Shown here: in pieces, positions 21,168 through 53,515 of the stretch
Position numbering within the stretch: the first letter of the stretch is position 1
Layout of the letters: each line of letters starts with the position of its first letter
Assembly: GCA_965263355.1 (NCBI GenBank)
Contig: CBDHHL010000032.1
Coordinates: forward strand, 3,232,001 to 3,296,000
DNA: 64,000 bases
Source: Leptolyngbyaceae cyanobacterium
Lineage (GTDB): Bacteria > Cyanobacteriota > Cyanobacteriia > Phormidesmidales > Phormidesmidaceae
Reading direction: 5' to 3'
Program-made: the position numbers and the translations under genes
The notes under the pieces: model-generated
Seen by the model: the letters and a program-made list of their open reading frames with translations, nothing else
The model's database searches: none
Told to the model about the DNA's origin: nothing

Positions 21168-23186
21168 ATGGCGCAGGCAGATGTACTGGTGGTGGGTGGC
21201 GGTATTATTGGCCTTGCGATCGCAACCGAACTGCGCCAGCAAGGTGCGACAGTAACCATCCTCAGCCGTGACTTTAATGCGGCAGCAGGTCATGCGGCGG
21301 CGGGCATGTTAGCCCCTAGGGCTGAAGGGTTGACAGGCCCTATGCTAGAGCTAGGTCAGCGTAGTCTGTCCCTCTATCTCGACTGGTGTCGTAAATTAGA
21401 AGAGCTAACGGGCCAAGATACTGGCTTTTGGCCCTGTGGTATTCTTGCTCCGCTTTGGGAATTACCCGCTGAAACCAATGGACTAGCGAACACTACTTTA
21501 CTCGGCCAGACCGCCATTCACAGCTATCAATCCCATCTCAGTCCTCAAGTAGCCGGTGGTTACTGGTACCCCGAAGAAGGGCAAGTCAATAATCAGGCTT
21601 TGCTCAAAGCCTTACGGATAGCTTCCCAAGATCTGGGTGTGGAGATCCAAGAGGGGGTAAATGTCATCTCTTTTTTGCAACAGAATCACCATGTAACTGG
21701 GGTATTGACTTCCCAGGGGCAGCAGCAGGCGGGGCATTATGTACTGGCGACTGGTGCTTGGACTAGTGAGCTGTTGCCAATTCCAGTAAAGCCTTGTAAG
21801 GGGCAAATGGCTGCCCTGTTGACTCCCCTTGACTCTCCCTATGGCCTCAGTCGAGTTTTGTATGGCGAGTACAGTTATATTGTGCCGCGCAAAGATGGGC
21901 GAATTGTGCTTGGGGCTACGAGTGAAGATGTTGGATTTACTCCCCATAACACTTCTAGGGGAGTAGCCCAGCTGCTTAACGAGGCGATTCGGCTTTATCC
22001 GCCCTTAGCTGATTTTCCTGTGCAGGAGTCTTGGTGGGGATATCGTCCAGCGACTCCTGATGAGGCTCCTATTTTGGGTCCTAGCCATTGCGATAATCTA
22101 ACTCTGGCAACGGGGCATCATCGCAATGGTGTTTTGCTGACGCCGATTACGGCTAAGCTGATTGGTGAGGCGGTTAAGGGAAAACCTGATCCGCTGTTAG
22201 ATGCGTTTCATTGGGAACGGTTCATGGAGGCGAGGGGTACCCATGGGACGGGAATGGAGCGTACTGCTCCGGTTCAAAATGTTCAAATTCAAAATGTTCA
22301 AAATGCAATGCCGATAGTGGGCACTGCCCACCCTACGGTTTTACACAATTCTACAGATATGCAAACGCTTTCGGCTCCTGTTGTGACAACGTCTGATGAT
22401 GTGCTGGTGATTGCGGGACGGTCTTTTGCGTCTCGGTTGATGACGGGGTCAGGGAAATTTGAGAACTTTGAGACGATGCGGGCTAGTCTGGCGGCGAGTG
22501 GCAGTCAGATTGTGACAGTAGCTGTGCGGCGGGTGCAGACCAATGCTCCAGGGCATGAAGGATTGGCCCAGGCCATTGACTGGCAGAAGATTTGGATGTT
22601 GCCCAATACTGCTGGCTGTACTACGGCTGACGAAGCGATTCGTGTGGCTCGACTGGGGCGAGAAATGGCAAAGTTGTTGGGGCAAGAAGACAACAATTTT
22701 GTCAAACTGGAAGTTATCCCTGATGCTAAATATTTGTTGCCGGACCCGATTGGTACCTTGCGGGCTGCAGAACAACTTGTGAAGGAAGGGTTTACGGTGT
22801 TGCCCTATGTGAATGCAGATCCGATTTTGGCAAGGCATTTGGAAGAGGCTGGCTGTGCGACAGTCATGCCCCTAGGCTCTCCCATTGGCTCTGGCCAAGG
22901 GGTGCGTAATGCGGCTAACATTCGCATTATTGTTGAGAATGCCAATATCCCGGTGGTAGTAGATGCGGGAATTGGTAGTCCCAGTGAAGCAGCAGAATCG
23001 ATGGAGATGGGGGCGGACGCCTTACTGATTAATACTGCGATCGCAAAAGCTCAAGACCCGGTCAAAATGGGACGAGCCATGGGGCTGGCAACAGAAGCAG
23101 GTCGTTTAGCCTATTTAGCCGGTCGGATTCCAGTAAAAGCATATGCCAGCGCTAGCTCTCCACTAACGGGTACCATTACCAGCTAG
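21168..23186 (+). CDS. thiOG: Fused glycine oxidase ThiO / thiazole synthase ThiG
   Basis: N-terminal [26 protein letters not shown]-terminal [31 protein letters not shown]. Confidence 0.93.
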
Positions 23187-23368: not shown

Positions 23369-25081
23369 TTACTGAGGGCTGGGAAGAGAATTAGTCTGCA
23401 GACAAGGTGCTGAAATCAGAATTTTCCCCTGATCTTGAACAACTTTACAGGTAGGTAAAAGTTGTTGCAGTGCGGAAGGTTGTTGCCGTAGTTGATTAAT
23501 GGCTGCTGTCCATTCTGTTCTATATTGACGTAACCAAAGTTTAGGCAAAGTGTTCAGGTTAAAAGAATTTTCATCCACTAGCCAAAAGTCAATGTCATAT
23601 TTGTCAATTACAGACTGTAATACTGATCTGTCAGGGCTATACTGCGCTTGAATGAGATCCAATGTGCGCTCTCTAATTTGGCGATAATACTCCTGATGAT
23701 AGGCAATGCTGTGGCCACGACTTAAGAGCACTGAACGCCCCGTGAAGGCAGGAATGTTTTCGGCCTCATTGGCAAGAGAGGCAATGCGAATATCCTGTGG
23801 CTGTTGGTTTATATACTCATAGAGTGCCGTTCGATTTGACTTCACATAGACAACATTGAGAAAACTGTTGAGGAATAGGGGATAGCCCACCGTGGTGATG
23901 GTGATACCTGCAATTATTGCTAGGGCAGTAATCTGTTTCCAGAGGCTATAAGGTGCTTTATAGAGCCGTCTAAGGCCACTATCCAACCATGTTATTAAGA
24001 CCATGGCAGCTGCTAAGGCAACGATAACTTTGATGCCATGGCGGCTATAGCGGCTGGGTAAATGCAACCAAAATAAAGTGGCGTGAGATGCTAAAAACAT
24101 CAGAATTCCAGCCAAGCCAATCTGGACTATAAGAACACCATTGGGGGTGATTTTTTTGAGCAGTGGTGGACGAAACCAGAGCATTAAGGGTAACAGCAAT
24201 GACAGTGCTGTGGTGGTCGGGGCGACGGGGGGGAAGAATCCACTGCGACTGGAGAATAGCCAAAATTTCCACCATTTATCTCGGAAAAATGCATTGCGGC
24301 CACCCGCTTGAAATTCGGCCATGGTTTTGGCTTGTTCCAGGCTGACAACGGGACCATAGGGGGAGGTTTCTAAGGCATAGGGTAACAGCACCAAGATTGC
24401 GATCGCGCCACCCACAATCAAGAATTTCAGATGATGTTTTTTGTCATTTTTGTTAGTTGTTGGCCATACCACTCGTAGTGCCAGGACTACAACCGATATA
24501 AACACCAGGTGTGGGTAGAAAAAACCCTGCAAGGCAATGGCAATGGCACAGCCCCAAATATTACGGCGAGCGACATAAACCAAAAAGACAATCACCAGTA
24601 ACACACTAAATCCTTTGGGGGTGCCTGATGCCACTTCATCCCACATCCAAAGGGACTGATTGAGAATAACTGTATTAACAAATGCCACCAGCGGCACGGG
24701 AATGATGGCTAAAGCCAGATAAAACGTGTAGACAGTGCCTGCTAAGCAAATGAAGGGAGGCAGGAGTTTGTTAAATAGAAATGGATTAATCCCGATTAGT
24801 GATCCGAAACGATACAAGGCTTTATAGCCTATCGGGGCCACAGACTGAAAATAGTCAGCCATGAGGTCATCTGGAAACATCATTGGATCCACATAACGCC
24901 ACATCCAAAACACATGCTGTCTAGCATCATCCTGGATCCCATAGGGACCCTCGAAGGCAATGCGCCAGAATAAGATGCCATAAAGCATGGCAATGGCCAG
25001 ACTAGCCATTAGCCAAAGGTTTTGCGTTTTGGGGGTGGAACGCAGACCGTATTGGTGAATCCAGTTGACAAGAGTCTTCAC
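23369..25081 (-). CDS. Polytopic membrane protein, possibly GT-C-like glycosyltransferase
   Basis: Many TM helices; acidic DDARQH motif after the first TM. Confidence 0.6.
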   Translation of the reverse strand: MKTLVNWIHQYGLRSTPKTQNLWLMASLAIAMLYGILFWRIAFEGPYGIQDDARQHVFWMWRYVDPMMFPDDLMADYFQSVAPIGYKALYRFGSLIGINPFLFNKLLPPFICLAGTVYTFYLALAIIPVPLVAFVNTVILNQSLWMWDEVASGTPKGFSVLLVIVFLVYVARRNIWGCAIAIALQGFFYPHLVFISVVVLALRVVWPTTNKNDKKHHLKFLIVGGAIAILVLLPYALETSPYGPVVSLEQAKTMAEFQAGGRNAFFRDKWWKFWLFSSRSGFFPPVAPTTTALSLLLPLMLWFRPPLLKKITPNGVLIVQIGLAGILMFLASHATLFWLHLPSRYSRHGIKVIVALAAAMVLITWLDSGLRRLYKAPYSLWKQITALAIIAGITITTVGYPLFLNSFLNVVYVKSNRTALYEYINQQPQDIRIASLANEAENIPAFTGRSVLLSRGHSIAYHQEYYRQIRERTLDLIQAQYSPDRSVLQSVIDKYDIDFWLVDENSFNLNTLPKLWLRQYRTEWTAAINQLRQQPSALQQLLPTCKVVQDQGKILISAPCLQTNSLPSPQ

Positions 25082-25232: not shown

Positions 25233-25700
25233 TTACGTTGCTTTTATCAGTACCAAATCGCCGTCAATAATAGCTTCGTAGGGCGCTAGCGGTTGAGTTG
25301 CAGGGCCTGTGTTTACGCTACCATCAGTGTTGAATTTTGACCCATGGCAGGGGCAGGCCAAGAGGTTATCTTTCCACTCAACGCCACAACCCTGGTGGGT
25401 ACACATGGAGTTGAGGGCGATAATGCTATCGGCATTAGCTGGATCACGAATGACAATGACGGGACCGGCAATAAAGCCTTTTTTGCCGAGATACCCATTG
25501 GCATCCAAGTCAGCGACGGTGCCCAAGGCAGCAAACCCATCAGCTCGGGGTGTTTCGTCGATTTTTTTTGGAGCGGTAGCGGACTCTGCTTCAGGGGCTT
25601 CAGACGTAGTTTCGGTAGAGTTACAGGCTGCGATCGCAATTGGCAACGATGTAGCTAACAGGCCTAACCCAAACAAGCTGCTAAACTCGCGACGTTTCAT
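25233..25700 (-). CDS. Rieske 2Fe-2S lipoprotein with Tat signal (PetC3-like)
   Basis: MKRREF Tat motif, IAAC lipobox, CTHQGC and CPCHGS Rieske boxes. Confidence 0.9.
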   Translation of the reverse strand: MKRREFSSLFGLGLLATSLPIAIAACNSTETTSEAPEAESATAPKKIDETPRADGFAALGTVADLDANGYLGKKGFIAGPVIVIRDPANADSIIALNSMCTHQGCGVEWKDNLLACPCHGSKFNTDGSVNTGPATQPLAPYEAIIDGDLVLIKAT

Positions 25701-25852
25701 ATTCTTTCCTCTCTTTAGTTACTGGAATCTAGGGGGTGGATGTGGGTTTACCCACTAGTATTGTGTCAAGTTCTAATTTTTGGATAAGGCCGTGAATAGT
25801 GATATGCGTAAACGCATGGCCTTGGGCTTTTGTGGTGATTAGTGACAGACAG

Positions 25853-27628
25853 CTAGGTGCTGGTTTCAGCGGCTGGCAATCCGCTCAACCATCCTTGATG
25901 CCGAATGACTGTGATCAGCACGAATAGCAGGTCTAGACCCACGACACCAGCGATGATTAATTCAGAACCACCGGTCCCAAATCCATAGCTGTGTAGCCCT
26001 GTACCTAGCACAAAGTTAACGCCATACCAGGCCATTAGCACCGCATTAAAAGCCACTACACTGGCAACACTGATACCAAAATTGCCAATCCAACCTACTA
26101 AGCGACCATGGAGCGGTACCAGGTAGCAGAGTAAGGCAATTAAAGCCCAGGTTTCCTTTGGATCCCAGCCCCAGAAACGACCCCAGGAGAAGTGCGCCCA
26201 AATGCCACCTAAAATAATACCAGCCGTCAATAATAGGACACCAACCTGGAGGACACGATAATTTAGCTGGGAAAGTAGCTTGATACGTGACTGGGCATTG
26301 GGGGTAAACAGGTAGCTCCCCAGAGCGACATGACCCAGACCCAACGCTAGGGCAAAGCTAGCGTAGCTCAGGGCAATGGTGGGGACATGAATACTCAACC
26401 AGAAGTTATCACGTAGGACTGGTACTAGGGGTGAAATGCTAGGATCTAACACCGCCGGTAGGCTATCGGCCAAAATCAGACAAATAACCGATAGGGGAGC
26501 CGCTGCCAATACATAGTACTTGGACCGATACAGCAGCTCAAACATCAGGGCAATAGCAGCAATGCCAAAGCCAACCCACACTACGGACTCGTACATGTTG
26601 GTCACTGGTGGGCGACCGGCAATTTGCATCCGTAGCCAGAAGCCACAGCTTTGTACAGCCACACCCGCAACAAAGGTACCTATGGCAGTCCAATATAGAT
26701 TAAAGGGCTGTACCCATAGGGCCATCAACATTAAGACAAAGGCAATACCATAGAGCTGCCATGCTTTAGCAAAGGGATGAAAGTGGTTAAAAAACACTTC
26801 GCGCTGCATGACACCGTCTGCTGGATAAACCGTGGGGCTAAGACTCGCTAAGCCATCTTTTAGAGACTGGGCCAGGGGGGCCAGCATAGGCAGATGGTCA
26901 GTGCCTGATAAAACTGTCTGTTTAATAATGGCGAAGTTGGCTAACAGTGGAGCCACTGACTCGGCATCGTACAGGCTTTGGGCCTCGGTAATGCCAACCC
27001 ATTTGCCTTTGATGTCAGTGGGATGGGGGACGATTGCGATCGCATTATCATCCACCATACTCAGCATTAGTTGTAGCCGGTCTTCAATGGTTAAAGCTTC
27101 TCGCTCATCACGGGTCAAATCTTCCTCGTCAATTTGTTTCTGGTGTGCCGCTCTAACCACCTCCCCTAAGGACTGATTTCTCATCAACGTTGCGAAGGAG
27201 AAGTGTTTTTGTTCCAAATCCAGCCCCGCCAGCTCTTTCAAGGGGCGATAGCTAACCAACACAAAGGGTTCTTCGTTCCAGTTGCGATTGTTGAGCCACA
27301 GTGACATAAAGGTTTCCATGGCGCTTTCTTCAACCCCATTGTGCTTGTAGGTGGTGGCCCCATAGATTTTGGCAACCGTTTCCTGAGCCACCGTATCCAG
27401 TGGCTTTTTCCGCCCACCCTGTTGCACAGTTATGGTCTGTAGGCTGTCTAGAGTCGATGGCTGAAACTGGCTGATGGGCATTGCAATGAGCAACAGCCCA
27501 AGGCATAAACCAATGACAAATTTAAGAAGTTTCATGGGATGTGGCTTGTACATAGTGGTATGCGAAGCGCAGGGTCTTAGATCTTTAGTTTGATATTTTG
27601 ATGCGGATGGGATGATGTCGGTCGCCAT
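25853..27628 (-). CDS. ccsA: System II cytochrome c synthase CcsA with large N-terminal soluble domain
   Basis: WWD domain WGRFWGWDPKETW, GRPPVTNMYES, WLSIHV, GLHSYG; start probably the internal MKLLK at 27535. Confidence 0.9.
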   Translation of the reverse strand: MATDIIPSASKYQTKDLRPCASHTTMYKPHPMKLLKFVIGLCLGLLLIAMPISQFQPSTLDSLQTITVQQGGRKKPLDTVAQETVAKIYGATTYKHNGVEESAMETFMSLWLNNRNWNEEPFVLVSYRPLKELAGLDLEQKHFSFATLMRNQSLGEVVRAAHQKQIDEEDLTRDEREALTIEDRLQLMLSMVDDNAIAIVPHPTDIKGKWVGITEAQSLYDAESVAPLLANFAIIKQTVLSGTDHLPMLAPLAQSLKDGLASLSPTVYPADGVMQREVFFNHFHPFAKAWQLYGIAFVLMLMALWVQPFNLYWTAIGTFVAGVAVQSCGFWLRMQIAGRPPVTNMYESVVWVGFGIAAIALMFELLYRSKYYVLAAAPLSVICLILADSLPAVLDPSISPLVPVLRDNFWLSIHVPTIALSYASFALALGLGHVALGSYLFTPNAQSRIKLLSQLNYRVLQVGVLLLTAGIILGGIWAHFSWGRFWGWDPKETWALIALLCYLVPLHGRLVGWIGNFGISVASVVAFNAVLMAWYGVNFVLGTGLHSYGFGTGGSELIIAGVVGLDLLFVLITVIRHQGWLSGLPAAETST

Positions 27629-27633
27629 TGCGA

Positions 27634-29451
27634 CTAAGCAGCGGGTTTACCGGAACGGTTCGAGAAAAAGCTAAAAATTGGAATAGGTGTAGCAGCTCCG
27701 TCCTTGCTATCTTGGACCTCAGGCGAACCTAGAACGTCACCTAAAAACTGGAGCTTTTTGGCCACGGATCTACCATAGAACATGATAGCCACACCTAAGG
27801 TAACCATCAGTGACCCTAGCCAGGTCAGCCCGGTTACCCACCAGGGCTCCCGTTTAACCTGTAGCGTAGACTGAGCTAAATCACCAGGATTCCAGGATGC
27901 TTGAGCAATTTTCCAACCCTGAAACCAGGTAGGATGATTCATCCAAACACGACGTTCAAATAGCTCACCTGTTTGTGGGTCTATGAGGGTGACCAAACTG
28001 GTCCACATAGCGACAGACTCACTACCCTCATTGCGCTCCACAATAAAGTCATTGAGTTTAAGGGCAAAGGGAAGGCGCATTAATTTGGGGCTAAAGGCCA
28101 CATACCAATCCTCTGTTGATGTGGCGACTGTAGTCGGTTCACCCCAAGGAATCCATGCAACTTGACCATCTGTCGTTGCTACCTGTAAGGCCGGTTCTCC
28201 CCCACCAGCTCCCTCGGGTAAGGGCGTTACATCTCGTTCCACCTTCGCCTGGGGCACGTAGTCTTCAAGCGTGATTTCAAAGTCTGCCCAACCTGGCGTC
28301 ACAGATTGTCCGAGGGCAATCGGTCCAGATTTAAACCCTTTAGAAGACCTGGCTGCGTAATAAAGGCCACCCTTCATGTCTACGACGATTTTAAAGAACG
28401 CATCTGGTTGGGAGTTGGCATCGATTTCATAATCGATATTAAGGGCTAACGGTGCACCTCCCGCTAGCTGGGTACGAATAGAGTCAAACCCAGGGGTGCC
28501 AAAGATAAACCAACGTTCAACAACGTCACCTGTAGAGACCTCTAACTGCACTGCTGGATTCCGCAGCTGCTGGGTGACCGTTTCTGGCTGGCCATTACCA
28601 TCCAGTCTAAAATCAGGCCAAAAACCCTGAACCGTGAGATTTATATCACCCAGAACAAGGGATTGATTTAAATTGGACCTAACATCTACAGTCTCTGTGC
28701 CATTAGGGAGGGCAAGCTGTAAGTTCCCCCAAGGCGCTTCAACATTCTGAGCAGGAGCAGTTAGCGTCTGTTGCAACTCCTGCTCAGAATGTACCGTTTG
28801 AATTTGCAATTCAGCCGGTCCGATATCCATCCGATCATAGGCGGCTGGGGCAGCTGCTAACCAACGCTCAAGTGTTTGTCCCATGCGTTGACTAGTCAGA
28901 GAAAGACGCACAGCTGGATTATCGATGGCAGCACCATCGATAAAATGAACGGTTTTAATCGCATGTTTGGTATATCCCAACAGGGATAAATCTCCCAAAT
29001 GATCAGGAACAATATGACCACTGTCCTTAATAAACAGAGAAGTTTGTTGATTCTCTTTGCCGGGGATGGCAAGTTCCAAGAGATCGCCGTCCACTCGTAA
29101 TGTACTAACAGGACCGCCATCGGTACGGGCTAGCAGCATGCCTTCCACACTCAAATGAATAACAGCGGCTGAACCTGCAATAATCACAACTAAGCCCCAG
29201 TGAGCAATGGCAAAGCCAACCTTACGAGCACCTTTCCAGGGATAGCGCAGCAGTGTGGAAAGACTGAGATTTACTGCCAATAAAAACATAAGAGCCCCAA
29301 ACCACGGGCTTTTATAAATTTCTTGTTGGACAACAGTTGCTCCCACTTCGGACTCATAAAATGTGGCACCAATCAGAATAGAACCGATTACCACCAGCAG
29401 CGGTACAGCCAGTCGAATCGAGCCAATAAATTGGATTACAGCAGACGTCAT
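27634..29451 (-). CDS. CcsB/ResB-like cytochrome c biogenesis protein
   Basis: Three N-terminal TMs (IYKSPWF, AHWG), large soluble domain, WMNHP..FQGW, C-terminal TM; 5 nt upstream of the ccsA ORF. Confidence 0.85.
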   Translation of the reverse strand: MTSAVIQFIGSIRLAVPLLVVIGSILIGATFYESEVGATVVQQEIYKSPWFGALMFLLAVNLSLSTLLRYPWKGARKVGFAIAHWGLVVIIAGSAAVIHLSVEGMLLARTDGGPVSTLRVDGDLLELAIPGKENQQTSLFIKDSGHIVPDHLGDLSLLGYTKHAIKTVHFIDGAAIDNPAVRLSLTSQRMGQTLERWLAAAPAAYDRMDIGPAELQIQTVHSEQELQQTLTAPAQNVEAPWGNLQLALPNGTETVDVRSNLNQSLVLGDINLTVQGFWPDFRLDGNGQPETVTQQLRNPAVQLEVSTGDVVERWFIFGTPGFDSIRTQLAGGAPLALNIDYEIDANSQPDAFFKIVVDMKGGLYYAARSSKGFKSGPIALGQSVTPGWADFEITLEDYVPQAKVERDVTPLPEGAGGGEPALQVATTDGQVAWIPWGEPTTVATSTEDWYVAFSPKLMRLPFALKLNDFIVERNEGSESVAMWTSLVTLIDPQTGELFERRVWMNHPTWFQGWKIAQASWNPGDLAQSTLQVKREPWWVTGLTWLGSLMVTLGVAIMFYGRSVAKKLQFLGDVLGSPEVQDSKDGAATPIPIFSFFSNRSGKPAA

Positions 29452-29551
29452 AAGCAGGCAATAAGCAAAATTCCATTGAAGATCCCATTAGGGAAACCTT
29501 ACAGACGGTCAACAATATTCAACAATCTTCACTGTGAATCCAAGACTTTTT

Positions 29552-29589
29552 TGTATCTGTAGGTACAGAAAAGTTGTATTTTTTGTTAC
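29552..29589. promoter_or_regulatory. Two tandem NtcA boxes (GTA-N8-TAC)
   Basis: TGTATCTGTAGGTACA (29552-29567) and GTATTTTTTGTTAC (29576-29589). Confidence 0.65.
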
Positions 29590-30193
29590 CAACCCCAGTA
29601 TTATTCAAAAACTGAATTGATCTATGGCAATAAATGCAAGACGATTTGGGTTTAACTAAGTTTTTAGCGACTTCACTTAGATGAGGTTAGGTATCTTTTG
29701 CTGATTGAAAGTATATATTCAGCTAGTGTTTTAGCTTCCTTTATGGATGTTTATGGATGCGTGAAATACCCTTGCCCTAATTTTCTTTATTGAAAATAAG
29801 CTTGATTCTTTTCTTGCAACTGACAAATGCGATAAAGGAATTTTATTGTTGTTTTGGTAGCTGAAGTCACAAAAAAATAGTTGAGATCGCCATACTTTGA
29901 TACTCAACATGAGTAATTCCCGATCCATCAGAGTTAGCATTTTGTCTTTGCGAAATGCTTTTATGATGGGTTTTTGAGTTAATCATGCCTCTTCTTGTTA
30001 TCTAGGTTGCCGTCACTCTTGATTTGGTGTCGGTGAGTTTGCTTTTAGAGCCGTCAACTTCATCACATATGTAGTGCGTTAGCTGGGTTGTTTGAGTCTA
30101 AAGGGATTCTTCGGCTTGTTGCGCATGATGTTTTTTGAGGTTCTTTGCAACAAAGCATGTGATGAAAACTTGTTGAATTGAGACTTACCAGGC

Positions 30194-31192
30194 ATGTCCT
30201 TAAATGTTGAGTTGTTAGAGCAAAGTTTCGAACTCGTAAAGCCCCAGGCAGATGAGCTTATGAGCAGCTTCTATAACAACCTGTTCACAGACTATCCGGC
30301 GTCTAAGCAATTGTTTGAGCACTCAGATATGTCCAAGCAGAAGCAGATGCTTAAGGGTGCTTTGGTGATGACTGTTGAAAATCTTAGGAGACCTGACGTG
30401 CTCAGTGATGCACTTAAGGGTTTGGGAGCACGTCATGTGAAGTACGGGGCTTTGCCAGAGCATTATCCAATGGTTGGTCAGAGTTTGCTTAAGGCTTTGG
30501 CGCAGCATGCAGGCGATGCCTGGACTGATGAGCTTCAAGAAGCTTGGGCAGGAGCCTATGGTGTCATTACTGAGCTGATGCTTGAGGGTGCTGATTACGC
30601 TCCGGAGGAGGTGGCCTTAGAGAGTGCGCCTGCGCCGACTGCTGAGGAAGGTGGTCTGAATATTGAGGTTTTAGAGCAGAGCTTTGCTTTAGTGGCTCCC
30701 CAAGCCGATGATTTGGTTTCAACGTTTTACAATTATCTGTTTACAGATTATCCAGAGTCTAAAGCTCTGTTTGAGCATACTGATATGTCCAAGCAGGCAC
30801 AGATGCTCAAAGGTGGTCTAGTGATGGTGGTGGAAAATTTGCGCAAGCCTGATGTTTTAAGTAAGGCTTTGAAAGGGTTGGGGGCTCGCCATGTGAATTA
30901 CGGGGCTTTGCCCGCTCACTATCCATTGGTGGGTAACAGTTTACTAAAGGCCCTTGAGAAACATGCAGGTGCCGCTTGGACCGCCGAAGTTAAGGATGCT
31001 TGGGTAGATGCCTATGGGGCAATCACAGAGCTGATGCTTGAGGGGGCTGACTATGATCAGCAGGATATTCAGTTGGATTCTGCAGCGGCAGTCCTGCCTG
31101 AGCCACCAGAAGGTATTGGGATGGGGAAAGTAGCAGGCATCATTGGGGCTGGTTCAGTTGCCTTCATTGTTTTGTTGATAGTGTTTCTTTAG
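30194..31192 (+). CDS. Tandem two-domain globin (flavohemoglobin/VHb-type) with C-terminal membrane anchor
   Basis: Two repeats, each with FY (TyrB10), LF (CD1), KQ (GlnE7), LGARH (HisF8), HYP and W..AY; C-terminal hydrophobic helix. Confidence 0.9.
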   Translation: MSLNVELLEQSFELVKPQADELMSSFYNNLFTDYPASKQLFEHSDMSKQKQMLKGALVMTVENLRRPDVLSDALKGLGARHVKYGALPEHYPMVGQSLLKALAQHAGDAWTDELQEAWAGAYGVITELMLEGADYAPEEVALESAPAPTAEEGGLNIEVLEQSFALVAPQADDLVSTFYNYLFTDYPESKALFEHTDMSKQAQMLKGGLVMVVENLRKPDVLSKALKGLGARHVNYGALPAHYPLVGNSLLKALEKHAGAAWTAEVKDAWVDAYGAITELMLEGADYDQQDIQLDSAAAVLPEPPEGIGMGKVAGIIGAGSVAFIVLLIVFL

Positions 31193-31198
31193 TATTGG

Positions 31199-31849
31199 TT
31201 GCTTAGAGAGTTGATGGCTTTAAGGCAACGACTAGGTAAATTGTTGTCGCTCAAGACAGGGATTGTCTTAGCGTTATTAATTCTGCTTGTGTGGATTTCG
31301 GCAGCGTTTGCCCTAGATCAAAAACAGATTTTTTTGCCGGGTGAAACGTCTGAAGGTCACCATGTTTTTGAGGCATCCTGTGCGTCTTGTCATGAAGGGT
31401 TTAAGCCCGTCAGCAACGAGAACTGTGCACGATGCCACGAGGCTGAACTGGCTGATGATGTGCATGGGGTGAAAAAGTTTCGTGATCCCCGTTGGGCAGA
31501 ATATCGTGAAAGAGTAGATGTTTTAACCTGTACGGCTTGCCATAATGAGCACGTTCATATGTTTGGTCGTGGAGTCAATCTACAGCCAGATTTATGTATG
31601 GCTTGTCATGAGGAATTGACGCTGACGCAGCTCAAGAGTCATGAAGGATTTGCCCCTGATGGTTGCTGGACGGCGGGCTGTCATAACTATCATGATCATC
31701 GAACTATATCTACTGGTTTTTTACGGCAAAATATGGGGCAGCCCGATATGCTGCCAGTCCAGGAACTGCCGGATAGGGTTGTGACGACATCGCTGGAAAC
31801 TGCGCCTGAGCCCGATCTCCAGCAGGAGTTTTTGGGAGGTGGCTCATGA
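31199..31849 (+). CDS. Multiheme c-type cytochrome (4 CXXCH + 1 CX4CH), N-terminal TM/signal
   Basis: CASCH, CARCH, CTACH, CMACH, CWTAGCH; start may be ATG 31214. Confidence 0.9.
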   Translation: MLRELMALRQRLGKLLSLKTGIVLALLILLVWISAAFALDQKQIFLPGETSEGHHVFEASCASCHEGFKPVSNENCARCHEAELADDVHGVKKFRDPRWAEYRERVDVLTCTACHNEHVHMFGRGVNLQPDLCMACHEELTLTQLKSHEGFAPDGCWTAGCHNYHDHRTISTGFLRQNMGQPDMLPVQELPDRVVTTSLETAPEPDLQQEFLGGGS

Positions 31850-32655
31850 TGCGTCAAGTCATAGGTTTGCTGCGTTCTGTTGCTGTGATTATCCTGGTGC
31901 TTCTGCTGGTGTGTGGTACGGTTCCAGTTGCTAGTGCTACGACAGAGCAAGATTTGAATGACATCACAGTCCTGTGGCAAAACAGTGCTCACGCGCTTAA
32001 TGATATCAACTGCGCTAGTTGTCATCAGAATAGTGAGACCAAAGAATTTGTTGCAGTTCCTAGCTATGAGACCTGTCAGTCTTGTCATGAAGAAGCTGTG
32101 GACACATTCTTGCTGAGTAAGCATGGTATTCGCCTACTGGAGGGCAAAGATGCGTTAACCCCTGCCATGGCTAGGCTGCCTATGCAGCATGATGCCATGC
32201 AAAAGCAGATGACCTGTAACGCTTGCCATGATGTGCATTCTGCCAATACAGTAGAGGCTTCGGTGGATGCCTGTCTCACTTGTCATAATGATGATCACTC
32301 TCTGAATTATCAAAATTCAAAGCATGCTGAACTGTTTGCTGAGAGCCGGGAATTACCTCGACCTGCACCAGGAGCTGTGAGTTGTTCAACCTGTCATTTG
32401 CCCCGCGTGAACTATGGAGAAGGTGATAGCACGATTGTGAAAGTCAATCACAACAATACCTATAATCTCAAGCCGCAGGATCGAATGGTGGGCGATGTAT
32501 GTATGAACTGTCACGGCATTGAGTATAGCTACAACAGTATTTTTGACCCTGAGCTGGTCGAAGCCAATTTTGACCGTCCTCCAACCCTAAAAATGGAGTC
32601 TTTTGATTTGATGAAGGCTGCTGAGGCCAGGAGAACGGGCAATGCCTCTGAATAA
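31846..32655 (+). CDS. Hexaheme c-type cytochrome with signal peptide
   Basis: CASCH, CQSCH, CNACH, CLTCH, CSTCH, CMNCH; ATGA overlap with the previous gene. Confidence 0.9.
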   Translation: MMRQVIGLLRSVAVIILVLLLVCGTVPVASATTEQDLNDITVLWQNSAHALNDINCASCHQNSETKEFVAVPSYETCQSCHEEAVDTFLLSKHGIRLLEGKDALTPAMARLPMQHDAMQKQMTCNACHDVHSANTVEASVDACLTCHNDDHSLNYQNSKHAELFAESRELPRPAPGAVSCSTCHLPRVNYGEGDSTIVKVNHNNTYNLKPQDRMVGDVCMNCHGIEYSYNSIFDPELVEANFDRPPTLKMESFDLMKAAEARRTGNASE

Positions 32656-32794
32656 CAAACTTAGATTTGTTATTTGGAACCCTCTGTGGGGGTAAGCCAC
32701 GTCTAAGTTGAAATCTGTAGGTCTTCTACAGGACAGTCAATTTCTAAGCGTGGCCAAGATCTAAAGATCCGGATGTACCAGGAGATAACTGATC

Positions 32795-33460
32795 ATGTTG
32801 ACAAATTTCTTTCAGCATATTCGTGCTAGGACTATAGCTTTGTTAGGATTAGCAGCGGCTGTTTGCTTTACTGCTGTTGCTTGTAGTGGTGGTGGTACTG
32901 CTACCACGGCAACCGCTACTGGCCCCAGTATTGCCCCTGAACTCGTTGCTGATTATATTCACACAGTGCTAGCAGCTGATCGTACTGCTTACACTAAGCA
33001 TGTTGTGAACCGTGTAAAGACCCTTGAAGGTAAAGCCAAGGATAAGGGCGTTCTTGAGGTTGAGTCTACTGAAGGCTGGCAGGAAACCAATGGTATTCCC
33101 TTGCCTGCTCAGATGTTCCGTTTGGGTTCCGAGATTGCCAATGAGTCTGGTTATTTTACCTATAACCTAATTTCTACTTGGTATATCAATGACAACCATG
33201 GCCCTAAGAGCGACTTTGAAAAAACCGCTCTAGTTGAAATGGAAGCTAGCGGTGAGCCCTATAAGGATTACCAAGAGGTTGGTGGTCAGGCATATTTCTC
33301 TGCTATGTACCCTGACAAAGCTGTTGCTGAAGCTTGCGTGACTTGCCATAATACTCACCCAATACATCTTGAGCGCTATCCTGACAAGCAATTCGAGATG
33401 GGAGAAGTTATGGGTGGTGTTGTGATCAATATTCCTGTTGAAAGCATGCCTGCTTCCTAG
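32795..33460 (+). CDS. DUF3365 / Tll0287-like monoheme c lipoprotein
   Basis: AVAC lipobox, PLPAQMFR, DKAVAEACVTCHNTHP, GEVMGGVVI; AGGAG RBS. Confidence 0.85.
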   Translation: MLTNFFQHIRARTIALLGLAAAVCFTAVACSGGGTATTATATGPSIAPELVADYIHTVLAADRTAYTKHVVNRVKTLEGKAKDKGVLEVESTEGWQETNGIPLPAQMFRLGSEIANESGYFTYNLISTWYINDNHGPKSDFEKTALVEMEASGEPYKDYQEVGGQAYFSAMYPDKAVAEACVTCHNTHPIHLERYPDKQFEMGEVMGGVVINIPVESMPAS

Positions 33461-33620
33461 CAGAGAGTTATCAGTTTTTCTCTGATTCTACTGGCCTGAG
33501 CTAGTTTTGGTCAGCCGGTTACAATCTCTCTCGACGTTAGGGATAGGTTTGTTGGTTTTTCCAATAGTTCTATCCCTAATGTTTTTGACTTACTTGATTG
33601 CTGTTGGTTCCTTAGGAGTC

Positions 33621-34214
33621 ATGAAACCTAAATTTTCTACCTTGATTATATTGACGCTCCTAAGTGCCTGTTTGTTGGTTCCCTTTGTTGTGAGCCCCAT
33701 CTATTTAGATGCACTGCGGGAACGTTCAGTAGAACTACATCAGTTGATTCGTGGTGAAATCTATAAGCAGGTAACTGGCTATGTTGCTTTAGCCTTTGTT
33801 GTTTTAGAGATGCTGTTATCGCTGCGAAAACGAGGACGGAGCTGGATTGGAAATTTGAAGTTACCAGGCTCTGTCATTTTGTGGCGTAGTCTTCATATAT
33901 TTCTGGGTGTAGGTCTTTTGGCTGTAGTGGGGGTCCATACCATTGGTTCTACGGGGCTTAATTTTAATGCGATCTTTTTATGGGTATTTTTTGCAGTGAC
34001 CCTTTCTGCTTTGGTGGGTGTCGTTGCAGAAACTGGGGTTTTAGAGTCCCCACGCAAGATCTTTGGCGTACCTGGGAATAAAGATCTAGTGTTGACTAAA
34101 GGCCCATTAATTCGAAATATGCGAGCTATTTGGCTGCCTACTCACATTTTTCTAGTGAGTGTGTTTATCTTAATGTTGGGTATGCATGTATTTCTGGCTT
34201 ATTACTATCGTTAA
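33621..34214 (+). CDS. Integral membrane protein, putative heme-b electron-transfer subunit
   Basis: About 5 TM helices; LSLRKR, WRSLHIFLG, VHT, WLPTHI, MHV (four TM histidines); AGGAG RBS before ATG 33621. Confidence 0.7.
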   Translation: MKPKFSTLIILTLLSACLLVPFVVSPIYLDALRERSVELHQLIRGEIYKQVTGYVALAFVVLEMLLSLRKRGRSWIGNLKLPGSVILWRSLHIFLGVGLLAVVGVHTIGSTGLNFNAIFLWVFFAVTLSALVGVVAETGVLESPRKIFGVPGNKDLVLTKGPLIRNMRAIWLPTHIFLVSVFILMLGMHVFLAYYYR

Positions 34215-34226
34215 AGGAGGAGTCGG

Positions 34227-34709
34227 TTGATGGCGTCTACTACAAAGGACGGTGCTGCGACTTCGGTTAAGGTTTTTGGGGCTGTTATTGCTTTGATTGC
34301 GGCGGTATTGGTGACTGTGTTGATTACTCGTCCAGCGGTGACGACGACTAGTTTTACTCCTCTCTCAGGATTGATGGCTTTAAAAACGATGGCGACTGAG
34401 GCCATGTCCTACGAAGTTGCGATCGCATCCCCAAACCCCACATTTATCGAGTTCTACGCTGATTGGTGTACCACCTGCCAAGGTATGGCCTCTACCGTAG
34501 TCGATTTGCATCAAGAATATGGCAATACCATTAACTTTGTCATGCTAGACATTGATGATCCCCAGTGGGCGACTCAAGTGGCAGATTACGCTGCTTCAGG
34601 GGTGCCTCAGTTTACTCTGATTGATGCTCAGCATAATGAAATTAAAACTTGGGTTGGTAAGGTGCCCAAATCAATCCTCGCTAATGTATTCGACCAGTTG
34701 CTTGGATAG
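34227..34709 (+). CDS. Membrane-anchored thioredoxin (TxlA/ResA/CcsX-like)
   Basis: N-terminal TM, EFYADWCTTC, GVP. Confidence 0.88.
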   Translation: MMASTTKDGAATSVKVFGAVIALIAAVLVTVLITRPAVTTTSFTPLSGLMALKTMATEAMSYEVAIASPNPTFIEFYADWCTTCQGMASTVVDLHQEYGNTINFVMLDIDDPQWATQVADYAASGVPQFTLIDAQHNEIKTWVGKVPKSILANVFDQLLG

Positions 34710-34965: not shown

Positions 34966-35799
34966 TCAAGCACTGCGAGCTTGGATATTAGAAAGCCATT
35001 CTGCGGGAGCAGATTCCTTTTTAGGGACTCCTATCGCATCGGTCCATAGGACATTGGTTAAGTTCGCGCCTTTTAGATTGGCTCCGGTTAAATCAGCACC
35101 TGATAGGTTGGCATTTGTAAGATTTGTGCCCCGTAAATCAGCGTTTTGTAGATTTGCCCGTTGTAGACAAGTACTCTGAAAATTAGTGGCTGTCAGGTCT
35201 GCGTCTCTAAAGCATACGTCTGTAAAGTCTGCATGGTTTAGGTTGCTTCCTTCCAAGTTAGCGGCTGTAAAATTGGCCTTGATACCGATAACCTGGGAAA
35301 GATTGCTCCAGCTCATATCTACTGATGTAAATTGAGCCTGGGTTAATTGGGCAGTGGCCCAGTCAGTCTGGTACAGGCAAGCACCACTAAAATCAGCTCC
35401 TTTAGCCCATATTCCCCATAGCTGAGCATTGGAAAAATTGGCATTCTGGGCAGATATTTCGCAGAGTGTTGCACCATTCAACTTAGCCTTGGCAAAGTTT
35501 GCTCGCGCCAAATTGGCCGCAGTTAAATTGGCACAGCTCCAATCGGCTCGCCGGACATCAGCATCTGTCAAATCAGTCCACAATCCTTGGAGCCAAATAG
35601 CGACCGTATCTTGTAAGTTGGCACCAATAAAGCGAGCACCACTCACATCGGCCCATATAAAACTGCTTTTAGACAAGTGACTTTGAATAAAGTCTAATCC
35701 GCTCAAATTTGCTTGGTAGAAATTAGCCTTTGGTAGCTGAACACCAGGAAAACTCCGCTCAGCACTGTGATACCGTTGCCAAAAAGTCAGTATATTCAT
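34966..35799 (-). CDS. Pentapeptide repeat protein
   Basis: Tandem A(N/D)LXX repeats; ERSFPGVQL N-terminus. Confidence 0.92.
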   Translation of the reverse strand: MNILTFWQRYHSAERSFPGVQLPKANFYQANLSGLDFIQSHLSKSSFIWADVSGARFIGANLQDTVAIWLQGLWTDLTDADVRRADWSCANLTAANLARANFAKAKLNGATLCEISAQNANFSNAQLWGIWAKGADFSGACLYQTDWATAQLTQAQFTSVDMSWSNLSQVIGIKANFTAANLEGSNLNHADFTDVCFRDADLTATNFQSTCLQRANLQNADLRGTNLTNANLSGADLTGANLKGANLTNVLWTDAIGVPKKESAPAEWLSNIQARSA

Positions 35800-35860
35800 T
35801 GTACTCAGGTGAAGACGGCATAATCATGCACCCCCTAACTGCGCCTCACCTGAACCACAT

Positions 35861-36787
35861 TTATCCAGGGACGTTTAATGCACCATTTTGCTTTAGCCAG
35901 GTAACCTGCGTTTCGGTTAATCCCTGTACGTCAGTAAAGAGGGCTCCTGCTACCTGCGCAGCGGTAAAGTCAACCGCTGTCAGATTTGCGTTTTCAAGAT
36001 TTGCCTGCTGTAGGTTGACGCCTGCTAAATTTGCACCTGCAAGATTAGCGCTTTCAAACTGGGCACCCATCATGGATGCATTGGTCCAATCAGTCTCAAT
36101 CAAACTGGCTCCATTTAAAGTTGCCCAGTCAACCTGGGCCTGTATTAGTACAGCACCATCTAGCGTTGCCTGTTCTAGCGTTGTATTGAGTAAGTTAGCT
36201 TGAGCTAGAGTCGCCCCATTAAGTTTGGCCTCTACAAAATGCGCTGATTCTAAGTCAGCTTGTTGCAAATTTGCGCTTAGTAATGTGGCGCGATCGCAAT
36301 TGCTCCGGGTCAGGTTAGCCCCTTCAAAAATAGCTCCGCTAAAGTCAGCGTCGGTCAGTGTTGCTTTGACCAAATTAGCCCAGCTGAAGCGAGTGTTATG
36401 GCCGATGGCATTGGATAAATCAGCTTGGGTCAAGGTGGCAAATGATAGGTCTGCTTCAGTTAGATGGGCACCATGAAACTTTGCCTTGGGGGCGTGTAGC
36501 TCACGGAAAATACCCCGCTCTAAACGGGCGCGAGTCAATTCTGCTGCATCCAAACGAGCTTTATCAAATCGACCTTCTGACAGTACTGCTAAAATCAACG
36601 TGGCCTTTGAAAAATCAGTCCCTTCGCAGGACGCTCCAGTCAAATTTGCCTGTCTTAGGTAAGCCTGGGTAAAGTTTCCTCGATCCAGAGCTGCTCCGCC
36701 CAGGTCAATTTTACTTAGCTCGGCTCGACGCAAAGATTCATGATGACTGACTTTTGCAAGCACTTCGCTGACAGTAAGCTGGGCCAT
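35861..36787 (-). CDS. Pentapeptide repeat protein
   Basis: Tandem A(N/D/T)LXX repeats; GLTETQ..WLKQNGA cap. Confidence 0.92.
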   Translation of the reverse strand: MAQLTVSEVLAKVSHHESLRRAELSKIDLGGAALDRGNFTQAYLRQANLTGASCEGTDFSKATLILAVLSEGRFDKARLDAAELTRARLERGIFRELHAPKAKFHGAHLTEADLSFATLTQADLSNAIGHNTRFSWANLVKATLTDADFSGAIFEGANLTRSNCDRATLLSANLQQADLESAHFVEAKLNGATLAQANLLNTTLEQATLDGAVLIQAQVDWATLNGASLIETDWTNASMMGAQFESANLAGANLAGVNLQQANLENANLTAVDFTAAQVAGALFTDVQGLTETQVTWLKQNGALNVPG

Positions 36788-52906: not shown

Positions 52907-53515
52907 TTATTGCTGCTGGGTGACATAGTCAATCGCCCATCTAGCAGCGGCAAGACTGATGCGAGCCTGTTCCATGGACGATAGATTATCCCATTCGATG
53001 TCACGTACTGAATTAATCGTGGCATCTAATATTTCTTCTTGACCACGCATGGCATGGGCCAGTGGACGGGCCATTACCTGCAGGTCAGCATCATCCCAGC
53101 CAGTCAGGGTATCGCGAACACAGGCAATTAGCTGTTCGGCCAAGGGGCGACTGGTAGTAACTACTTGAGATGCTTTAGCTGTAATTTGAGCAATGACATC
53201 TTCAGATAGACGACGAGCAAAGCGCTGTGCTAAAGCTATCTCTACGGAAGTGCCGCCCCACAAGGTATCGAGCTTAGCTGACAAGGCTTGCCAACCAAGC
53301 TGGGCTTCCTCATCTGAAAGGGCTAGTTCATCACCAGCGTCAGCGATTTCGGTAAAGTAGTTTGAAGCGTCTGCCGGGGTCCATGGGTAAGGCGTTTGAG
53401 GTGACAGAATTGACTGCAGCATTTCCTGCTGAGCAAGGTTGTCTGTGGATAGGCGTTGCTGAGACGAAGAATTTTTGTGGTTGACCATGGTAGTGTTACC
53501 CTCCCATAAGTTCAT
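52907..53515 (-). CDS. Hypothetical protein, possibly PatU3-like
   Basis: PYPW, LAEQLIACV, DLQVMARPLA, EQARISLAAAR. Confidence 0.65.
   Translation of the reverse strand: MNLWEGNTTMVNHKNSSSQQRLSTDNLAQQEMLQSILSPQTPYPWTPADASNYFTEIADAGDELALSDEEAQLGWQALSAKLDTLWGGTSVEIALAQRFARRLSEDVIAQITAKASQVVTTSRPLAEQLIACVRDTLTGWDDADLQVMARPLAHAMRGQEEILDATINSVRDIEWDNLSSMEQARISLAAARWAIDYVTQQQ

Follow-up and report, generated by a model that had tools for sequence, protein, structure and literature searches.

A nitrogen-linked globin and multiheme-cytochrome operon in a Leptolyngbyaceae cyanobacterium and its relatives in distant phyla

We analysed a 64,000-nucleotide stretch of DNA (the window) from a Leptolyngbyaceae cyanobacterium (contig CBDHHL010000032.1, positions 3,232,001 to 3,296,000), in which a first-pass annotation had proposed a self-contained redox locus combining globin, cytochrome, DUF3365, membrane-protein, thioredoxin, Ccs and Rieske genes. 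An open reading frame (ORF) check found all nine ORFs where they had been placed, six on the plus strand and three divergent on the minus strand (Table 1). Pfam and NCBIfam matches identified Rieske, CcsA (Cytochrom_C_asm), ResB/CcsB, two Globin, multiheme c, Tll0287-like (DUF3365) and thioredoxin families, and the proposed gene set is confirmed. A comparison of the locus with plasmids gave no match, and a generic scan for sigma-70 promoters and terminators at the locus returned hits at chance level.

Table 1. Features of the globin-cytochrome locus (positions refer to the window)
Feature	Position	Strand	Support
Small Rieske [2Fe-2S] protein, twin-arginine-like N-terminus and lipobox	25233..25700	-	Pfam Rieske, E 4e-12
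Long-type CcsA heme lyase, dedicated	25853..27628	-	PF01578, E 1e-30
ResB/CcsB (Ccs1), heme lyase partner	27634..29451	-	PF05140, E 2e-14; 29/29 full cyanobacterial loci
Perfect NtcA-type box GTA-N8-TAC, ~100 nt before resB	29553..29566	.	Role uncertain
Promoter of the globin-cytochrome operon, predicted to be NtcA class II: GTAGCTGAAGTCAC, 22 nt, TACTTT	29857..29898	+	
Tandem globin of the single-domain (flavohemoglobin) type, anchored to the membrane at its C-terminus, predicted nitric oxide dioxygenase	30194..31192	+	Pfam Globin x2
Membrane-anchored pentaheme cytochrome c, N-terminal half of the 11-heme protein	31199..31849	+	
Hexaheme cytochrome c, C-terminal half of the 11-heme protein, probable HAO-family scaffold	31846..32655	+	
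Tll0287-like (sCache_heme/DUF3365) monoheme lipoprotein, conserved PAQM	32795..33460	+	PF11845, E 3.4e-20
Four-His membrane protein, predicted diheme cytochrome b	33621..34214	+	Helix His pairs, AlphaFold model
Membrane-anchored thioredoxin, WCTTC	34227..34709	+	PF00085

A scan of GTDB genomes with the hexaheme cytochrome found 56 loci: 42 at 62-84% identity (41 titled cyanobacteria and one 'uncultured bacterium'), ten non-cyanobacterial orthologues and four unrelated weak matches. The first-pass annotation had proposed a search for the nine genes together in other genomes. Among 45 cyanobacterial genome loci, 29 had enough flanking sequence for gene counts; all nine genes were present in 28 of these and the remaining one had no Rieske gene, a co-occurrence far beyond chance. 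In the GTDB family to which Leptolyngbya sp. Heron Island J belongs, which we take to be Phormidesmidaceae, 82 of the 172 genomes contained the hexaheme, compared with only 4 of 401 genomes sampled across the whole cyanobacterial phylum. Three distant cyanobacterial contigs (L091, L097 and L098) keep the globin, both cytochromes and the Tll0287-like and membrane proteins; as their ccs, thioredoxin and Rieske genes are relocated or missing, the left arm of the locus is accessory.

The system is not specific to cyanobacteria: the same operon was found in 24 of 400 sampled gammaproteobacterial and 6 of 301 planctomycete genomes (seed genomes included). There the two cytochromes form one protein of ~450-500 aa with ten CxxCH motifs and one CX4CH. 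Flanks were long enough for counting in 47 of 78 non-cyanobacterial loci, and these contained the membrane domain (47), the Tll0287-like protein (46), a flavoprotein (45), the globin (37) and an extra monoheme cytochrome (22), with no ccs, thioredoxin or Rieske gene in any of them. A protein search scored 8000 candidates, of which 3359 matched at E <= 1e-20; these may include partial relatives. Judged from these gene sets, the window carries the cyanobacterial version of an operon that is also found in distant phyla. In a midpoint-rooted FastTree phylogeny of 84 of the 124 hexaheme regions, with cyanobacteria thinned to 20, the cyanobacterial sequences formed one clade (support 0.998) that grouped with three flavoprotein-less non-cyanobacterial loci (support 1.0); we claim neither a donor nor an order of events. 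In two non-cyanobacterial loci, L105 and L114, the membrane protein stands alone, and genes for a monoheme cytochrome and a ferredoxin-type nitrite reductase (NirA) come after it; L105 shows the cyanobacterial gene order with split cytochromes.

Canonical NtcA class II promoters (consensus GTA-N8-TAC, 22 nt, TAN3T) mark genes that scavenge traces of combined nitrogen (PMC3898017). We scanned 43 cyanobacterial divergent regions for a GTA-N8-TAC box, allowing one mismatch, with TAN3T behind a spacer of 21-23 nt. The motif faced the globin gene in 39 of the 43 regions and resB in six, with 6.7 expected, and the spacer was exactly 22 nt in 36. The predicted promoter in the window has one mismatch to the consensus. 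In control scans four of five nirA promoters were positive, as were 6 of 49 window ORFs, two of them with a 22-nt spacer, one being the globin. For the perfect box before resB no matching -10 box was found; it is kept in position, with variants, in close relatives. A 202-aa ORF elsewhere in the window (52907-53515, minus strand), without a Pfam family, lies 101 nt downstream of an NtcA class II motif that is perfect and has a spacer of 22 nt, and is possibly a nitrogen-regulated gene.

Outside cyanobacteria we examined 52 leaders of the flavoprotein gene, using the ANTAR motif of PMC3369931. Hairpins with an ANTAR-type A1/G4 hexaloop were present in 21 of the 52 leaders, against 6 in antisense and 5.1 expected, and in 13 of 19 against none in an even sample of Gammaproteobacteria. 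A sigma-54 motif was found in 17 of the 52 (one in antisense, 0.8 expected). The first-pass annotation had envisaged a microoxic trigger, but FNR-type boxes showed no enrichment (seen in 1 of the 43 cyanobacterial regions, with 3.3 expected) and the signals recovered were instead NtcA, NasT and sigma-54. A search with an NsrR-type motif, an unreliable pattern, found nothing.

Genomic linkage pointed in the same direction. At least one of nasT, nrtABC, narK, nirA or nasA lay within ~9 kb in 10 of 24 gammaproteobacterial, 1 of 6 planctomycete and 15 of 40 metagenome loci, and the operon was found inserted inside nas operons in non-cyanobacterial loci. When 23 carriers (one weak match dropped) were compared with 57 non-carriers among relatives' genomes, NasT was present in 21 carriers and 11 non-carriers (p 2e-9) and NirD in 21 carriers and 21 non-carriers (p 6e-6); the samples are related and often incomplete, so that the direction of this nitrogen signal is firmer than its p-values. 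We consider that the operon probably belongs to the nitrogen regulon. Complementarity with Hmp was uninformative (0/23 carriers, 4/57 non-carriers, p 0.32). We rejected replacement of the standard nitrite reductase, as carriers have NirD (21/23) or nirA (5/5 cyanobacteria checked).

An NtcA-type promoter would also suit oxygen scavenging to protect nitrogenase during nitrogen starvation, for which the Nostoc cyanoglobin GlbN, an oxygen scavenger for nitrogenase, offers a parallel; the membrane-anchored globin repeated one to three times and the presence of nifH in 23 of 40 carriers fit this as well. However, nifH was equally common in non-carriers (18/40, p 0.37), on which ground we rejected a link to nitrogen fixation, 17 of the 40 carriers show no nifH (the genomes may be incomplete), and the relatives are tied to the nitrate-responsive NasT. 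We consider nitrogenase protection most improbable.

For the membrane protein, the probable start is the ATG at 33621 behind AGGAG, not 33507, which yields a product of 197 aa, the length found in close relatives. Of its four His, three do not vary across 64 sequences and one is conserved in at least 90% of them. In an AlphaFold model (predicted local distance difference test, pLDDT, 88), His92/106 lie on helix 85-107 and His175/189 on helix 160-195, each pair 14 residues apart. With two His pairs on two transmembrane helices, the protein is a predicted diheme cytochrome b that would bind heme b. It has no Pfam family or PDB profile match, and its Atlas clusters are 'hypothetical' only. The top Foldseek match was cytochrome b561, weak at E 0.57, and a CybB fold match (Z 9.2, root-mean-square deviation (rmsd) 3.3, 130 aligned residues) stood among unrelated helical bundles. 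The helical bundle and the 14-residue His spacing are shared with the transmembrane domains of b561, CybB and ferric reductases, from which the protein differs in lacking a Pfam or PDB sequence match and in its partner, which is a NirB-like Pyr_redox/Rubredoxin_C/BFD module rather than an FNR-type domain.

That partner is seen outside cyanobacteria, where the membrane protein is the C-terminal domain of a ~670-aa Pyr_redox_2/Rubredoxin_C/BFD-[2Fe-2S] protein with all four His aligned; 45 of the 47 loci encode this fusion to an NADH flavoprotein-[2Fe-2S] module. On redox grounds, an NADH flavoprotein and [2Fe-2S] center feeding a diheme b favors outward flow. Because the same membrane domain is fused to such a module elsewhere, electrons more likely move outward than inward to the globin. 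The transmembrane chain of the first-pass annotation is thus retained insofar as a predicted heme-b protein is joined to periplasmic multiheme cytochromes, but its inward direction is not. Two flavoprotein-less non-cyanobacterial loci (L105 and L114) adjoin the ferredoxin-type NirA, and cyanobacterial NirA and NarB use ferredoxin as donor; by analogy, ferredoxin may be the donor in the flavoprotein-less form. The cytochromes are presumably periplasmic and not in the thylakoid lumen.

The two cytochrome genes, described earlier as a translationally coupled 5-heme and 6-heme pair, do overlap by ATGA at 31846-31849, with the refinement that the five heme motifs are four CxxCH and one atypical CX4CH; the hexaheme has six CxxCH. 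The CX4CH is kept as CxxxGCHN in 138 of 141 homologues. Five non-motif His in the pentaheme and six in the hexaheme are invariant, and eleven such residues for eleven hemes would fit a wire with all-bis-His ligation. The pentaheme module had no PDB match, and in a full-length model search the N-terminal half had no fold match; we do not claim a new fold. Neither window cytochrome contains CxxCK, the lysine-ligated motif of NrfA and octaheme nitrite reductases (ONR), and in a further difference from these enzymes the window hexaheme is preceded by a pentaheme module with CX4CH.

The hexaheme half resembles the hydroxylamine oxidoreductase (HAO) family. Its best PDB match was the reductive HAO-like 6H5L, in an alignment spanning HAO hemes 2, 3, 5 and 6. 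An AlphaFold model of the fused Rhodopirellula cytochrome (pLDDT 86) gave nine top Foldseek rows that were all HAO-family proteins or 4QO5, weak at E 0.01-0.14; the fold comparison yielded Z 6.5-7.1 and rmsd 4.1-16 over 198-222 aligned residues, covering model residues ~215-446 and ~200-220 of the 500 residues of the HAO targets. N. europaea HAO, Kuenenia Kustc0458 (6H5L) and 4QO5 thus provide the top, though weak, fold match, and the Asp-His pair after heme 6 is retained in the hexaheme as D-x-H: D149 and H151 are invariant in 124 of 124 sequences and align, with a one-residue offset, to the DH of 6H5L, a pair that we assume to have a catalytic role in HAO. In contrast to the eight CxxCH of HAO, the hexaheme has six. 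It lacks heme 1, and the catalytic heme-4 motif of 6H5L aligns to a non-motif stretch without CxxCH or conserved Cys or His. Most of the C-terminal helical/trimer domain with the cross-linking Tyr is also missing, as the protein ends 46 residues past its last heme motif. The hexaheme is therefore best described, on its sequence, as HAO-like but without the catalytic heme motif. M214, which 121 of 124 sequences retain, may serve as a heme ligand, in which case H151 would be free.

The Tll0287-like lipoprotein follows the wire genes. Its PF11845 match is above the gathering score, with a single CxxCH at position 181. R63, Y66, E93, Q106, R109, Y123, H188 and others are invariant in 124 sequences, and the set of invariant Arg, Tyr, Glu and His suggests a specific site. 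Like Tll0287 itself (PF11845; 5B82), it is an exported lipoprotein with one CxxCH and no signalling fusion. Unlike Tll0287, it has no Cys between the lipobox Cys30 and Cys181 that could provide His/Cys axial ligation, and carries in that region the motif PAQM (142 of 144 copies), whose conserved Met107 may be the heme ligand. Its heme is a candidate for the terminal, substrate-reacting site. Stand-alone members, whose function is left open (10.64898/2026.02.01.703092), are said to lack a signalling-gene context (bioRxiv 2026.02.01.703092), whereas the window protein has a fixed operon context. Signalling-fused sCache_heme domains bind nitric oxide (NO) (bioRxiv 2026.02.01.703092), and on this property a relay for redox or NO sensing could be built, with the Cache domain as the detector of NO or nitrite. 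However, the window copy is a stand-alone lipoprotein, of the class found to be redox-like in the same source, and the conserved core has no signalling output gene. Of the NO/nitrite detoxification or sensing role suggested by the first-pass annotation, the nitrogen-oxide idea is broadly supported, but sensing is very improbable because no output domain is present.

A chain of this kind might instead serve as a general outward electron sink or a metal or oxygen reductase (reducing ferric iron, forming superoxide or carrying out extracellular electron transfer) whose co-regulation with nitrogen is incidental, either because nitrate use needs iron or because nitrogen limitation leaves excess reductant. 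The NADH-FAD-[2Fe-2S]-diheme b series resembles the logic of ferric reductases and NOX, the His count fits a pure wire, and an alginate-export-type porin gene lies beside nine non-cyanobacterial loci. Yet the cyanobacterial locus has no porin gene, a Fur-type box occurred in 0 of 43 cyanobacterial and 0 of 52 other regions, the many invariant polar residues of the Tll0287-like protein are those expected of a specific site, and the operon has been inserted inside nas operons. We therefore regard an electron sink as distinctly unlikely. For extracellular transfer the nearest comparison is the Uet undecaheme cluster of Tenderiales, which also has an eleven-heme cytochrome with ccsAB nearby (bioRxiv 2022.05.06.490989). 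Uet, however, is described as an electron-uptake system comprising UetJ with eleven CXXCH, a beta-barrel, a triheme c7 and NHL proteins (10.1101/2022.05.06.490989); with no beta-barrel, triheme c7 or NHL protein in the window operon we rejected identity by gene content, setting the two apart by description. No outer-membrane beta-barrel is encoded among the nine window genes, in contrast to MtrCAB/Uet-type conduits.

The remaining component is the globin. TyrB10, PheCD1, GlnE7 and HisF8, labels that we assume to carry over from Vgb/Hmp, are found in 28, 30, 29 and 30 of 30 aligned globins. The best PDB matches are single-domain globins and flavohemoglobins, and the protein is a predicted NO dioxygenase. 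The fused FAD/NAD reductase of Hmp is not present: only the globin domains match NF009805, scoring 165 bits where the cut-off is 432. The anchor at the C-terminus (residues 313-331) is missing in some cyanobacterial copies and in all ten aligned non-cyanobacterial globins. The number of domains ranges from one to three among cyanobacterial loci. Placed at the end of the chain in the first-pass annotation, the globin turns out to be a frequent but dispensable partner (37/47 non-cyanobacterial loci), in contrast to the near-constant membrane domain (47/47) and Tll0287-like protein (46/47). Some cyanobacterial loci encode a second, unanchored globin (L061:5831-6361, L072:4132-4659, L086:4100-4645), with His for Tyr at B10 in two of the three aligned. 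At L036:7064-8156 two overlapping ORFs make up the double globin, perhaps owing to a frameshift or a mistake in the assembly, and L124:9636-10970 has a truncated (2/2) globin and a ferredoxin-reductase-like gene in place of the single-domain globin.

The closest working analogy to the globin arm, and to that arm only, is Bradyrhizobium japonicum's operon narK-bjgb-flp-nasC, in which a globin and a flavoprotein remove NO made during nitrate assimilation (PMC4724949). Both systems have a single-domain globin, that of the window under predicted nitrogen control; in Bradyrhizobium the flavoprotein Flp is separate and control is by NasS-NasT (PMC4724949), whereas the window form has no flavoprotein, no adjacent nas genes and an NtcA-type promoter. 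The accessible text of PMC4724949 mentions no transmembrane cytochrome b, 11-heme cytochrome or Tll0287-like protein. Co-location of the Bjgb/Flp type, a globin with a flavoprotein under nitrate or nitrogen control, was seen in many of our proteobacterial loci.

In the opposite direction, periplasmic NO, hydroxylamine or another reduced nitrogen compound would be oxidised, and wire and cytochrome b would re-reduce the cytoplasmic globin. The HAO-type scaffold of the hexaheme, the membrane tether of the globin in most cyanobacterial copies and the lack of a flavoprotein reductase in the cyanobacterial locus are consistent with such an inward chain, and the nitrogen-control motifs would equally fit scavenging of reduced nitrogen compounds. 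Against it, the orthologous membrane domain is elsewhere joined to an NADH flavoprotein, a module that can itself reduce the globin, neither the catalytic heme nor the C-terminal domain of oxidative HAO is present, and 10 of the 47 non-cyanobacterial loci have no globin. We judge the inward chain to be unlikely.

Our preferred reading, which we hold with about even confidence, is that the operon is an accessory of nitrate/nitrite assimilation that would reduce nitrogen oxides in the periplasm through an outward wire, with the globin as NO dioxygenase. Electrons would pass from ferredoxin (cyanobacteria) or the NADH flavoprotein (elsewhere) to the predicted diheme cytochrome b, then through the eleven-heme wire, split in the window, to the periplasmic Tll0287-like heme, which would reduce nitrite or NO; the anchored globin would convert cytoplasmic NO back to nitrate for return to assimilation. 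We call the system an accessory because carriers keep their standard nitrite reductase. This same fact makes a second nitrite-reducing step look redundant, and several other points weigh against the proposal. The wire has no obvious five-coordinate heme and, as noted, the globin is missing in 10 of 47 loci. Nitrate-assimilation genes were found within ~9 kb of 0 of 84 cyanobacterial and 0 of 8 first-scan non-cyanobacterial loci. The tightly conserved dual ANTAR hairpin is present in just 3 of 52 leaders, and sigma-54 promoters also serve non-nitrogen activators. Since loci and genomes are related, counts and p-values overstate independence, and the comparison of carriers with non-carriers was uncontrolled for genome size. 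Finally, a characterised stand-alone sCache_heme protein binds NO only weakly (bioRxiv 2026.02.01.703092).

A more specific version, which we advance tentatively and consider unlikely, is a new type of nitrogen-scavenging system, an assimilatory periplasmic nitrogen-oxide reductase powered from the cytoplasm and with a split active site. Here the HAO-derived wire would have lost its catalytic heme while retaining the Asp-His pair, and either the Tll0287-like protein or the heme at CX4CH would dock at the vacant heme site; nitrite, NO or hydroxylamine would be converted to ammonium, and the globin would capture NO as nitrate. If so, benthic cyanobacteria and many marine heterotrophs would use traces of NO and nitrite as nitrogen sources.

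Multiheme cytochromes of the HAO/NrfA type belong to respiration and to the oxidation of nitrogen compounds; they are not known to take part in nitrogen assimilation and lie outside the textbook set of cyanobacterial cytochromes. In the present operon, nitrogen-control signals that agree between distant phyla accompany an 11-heme protein. The operon is real, conserved and apparently undescribed: as the first-pass annotation had supposed, we found no description in the literature searched, which mostly excluded subscription papers, among them the original Tll0287 and PetC3 studies. If the assimilatory reading is true, the operon represents an unrecognised periplasmic branch of nitrate/nitrite assimilation and of the turnover of NO in the sea. 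In addition, it places stand-alone Tll0287-like proteins in a context open to testing and offers single-domain globins a candidate system of electron donation. The carriers Leptolyngbya sp. PCC 7375, Rhodopirellula sallentina and Thalassococcus halodurans exist in culture.

The left arm and the thioredoxin bear out the dedicated heme-attachment machinery that had been claimed, with ResB and an extra, long-type CcsA. A second ccsA lies elsewhere in both cyanobacterial genomes checked (G001 and G002). The likely start of the window CcsA is 27535, giving 560 aa as in relatives. The thioredoxin is present in all 29 full cyanobacterial loci and none of the 47 others, with WCTTC in 55 of 57 homologues. 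ResB, CcsA and thioredoxin would mature the c-type hemes, the last as the likely apocytochrome thiol reductant for the dedicated Ccs system. In one non-cyanobacterial locus (L108:93-2527) resB together with a long ccsA immediately precedes the flavoprotein operon, and the CcsA there is 29% identical to that of the window. The Rieske protein is a cyanobacteria-only accessory: 28 of the 29 full cyanobacterial loci encode it and none of the 47 others does. It has an RR motif, a lipobox and the Rieske motifs, scores below the PetC cut-offs and is presumably PetC3-like. PetC3 is periplasmic (PMC12341915).

Several neighbouring genes recur. Two pentapeptide-repeat genes (34966-36787, minus strand) converge on the operon; such genes are near 37 cyanobacterial loci, and in L090 and L098 they lie directly 3' of the membrane-protein gene on the same strand. 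A ChaN-type heme-uptake gene is found near five cyanobacterial loci (L075:12581-13474 and four others). A glycine-oxidase-like/ThiG fusion (21168-23186, plus strand) and a 570-aa membrane protein without a Pfam or NCBIfam match (23369-25081, minus strand) flank the locus in close relatives only.

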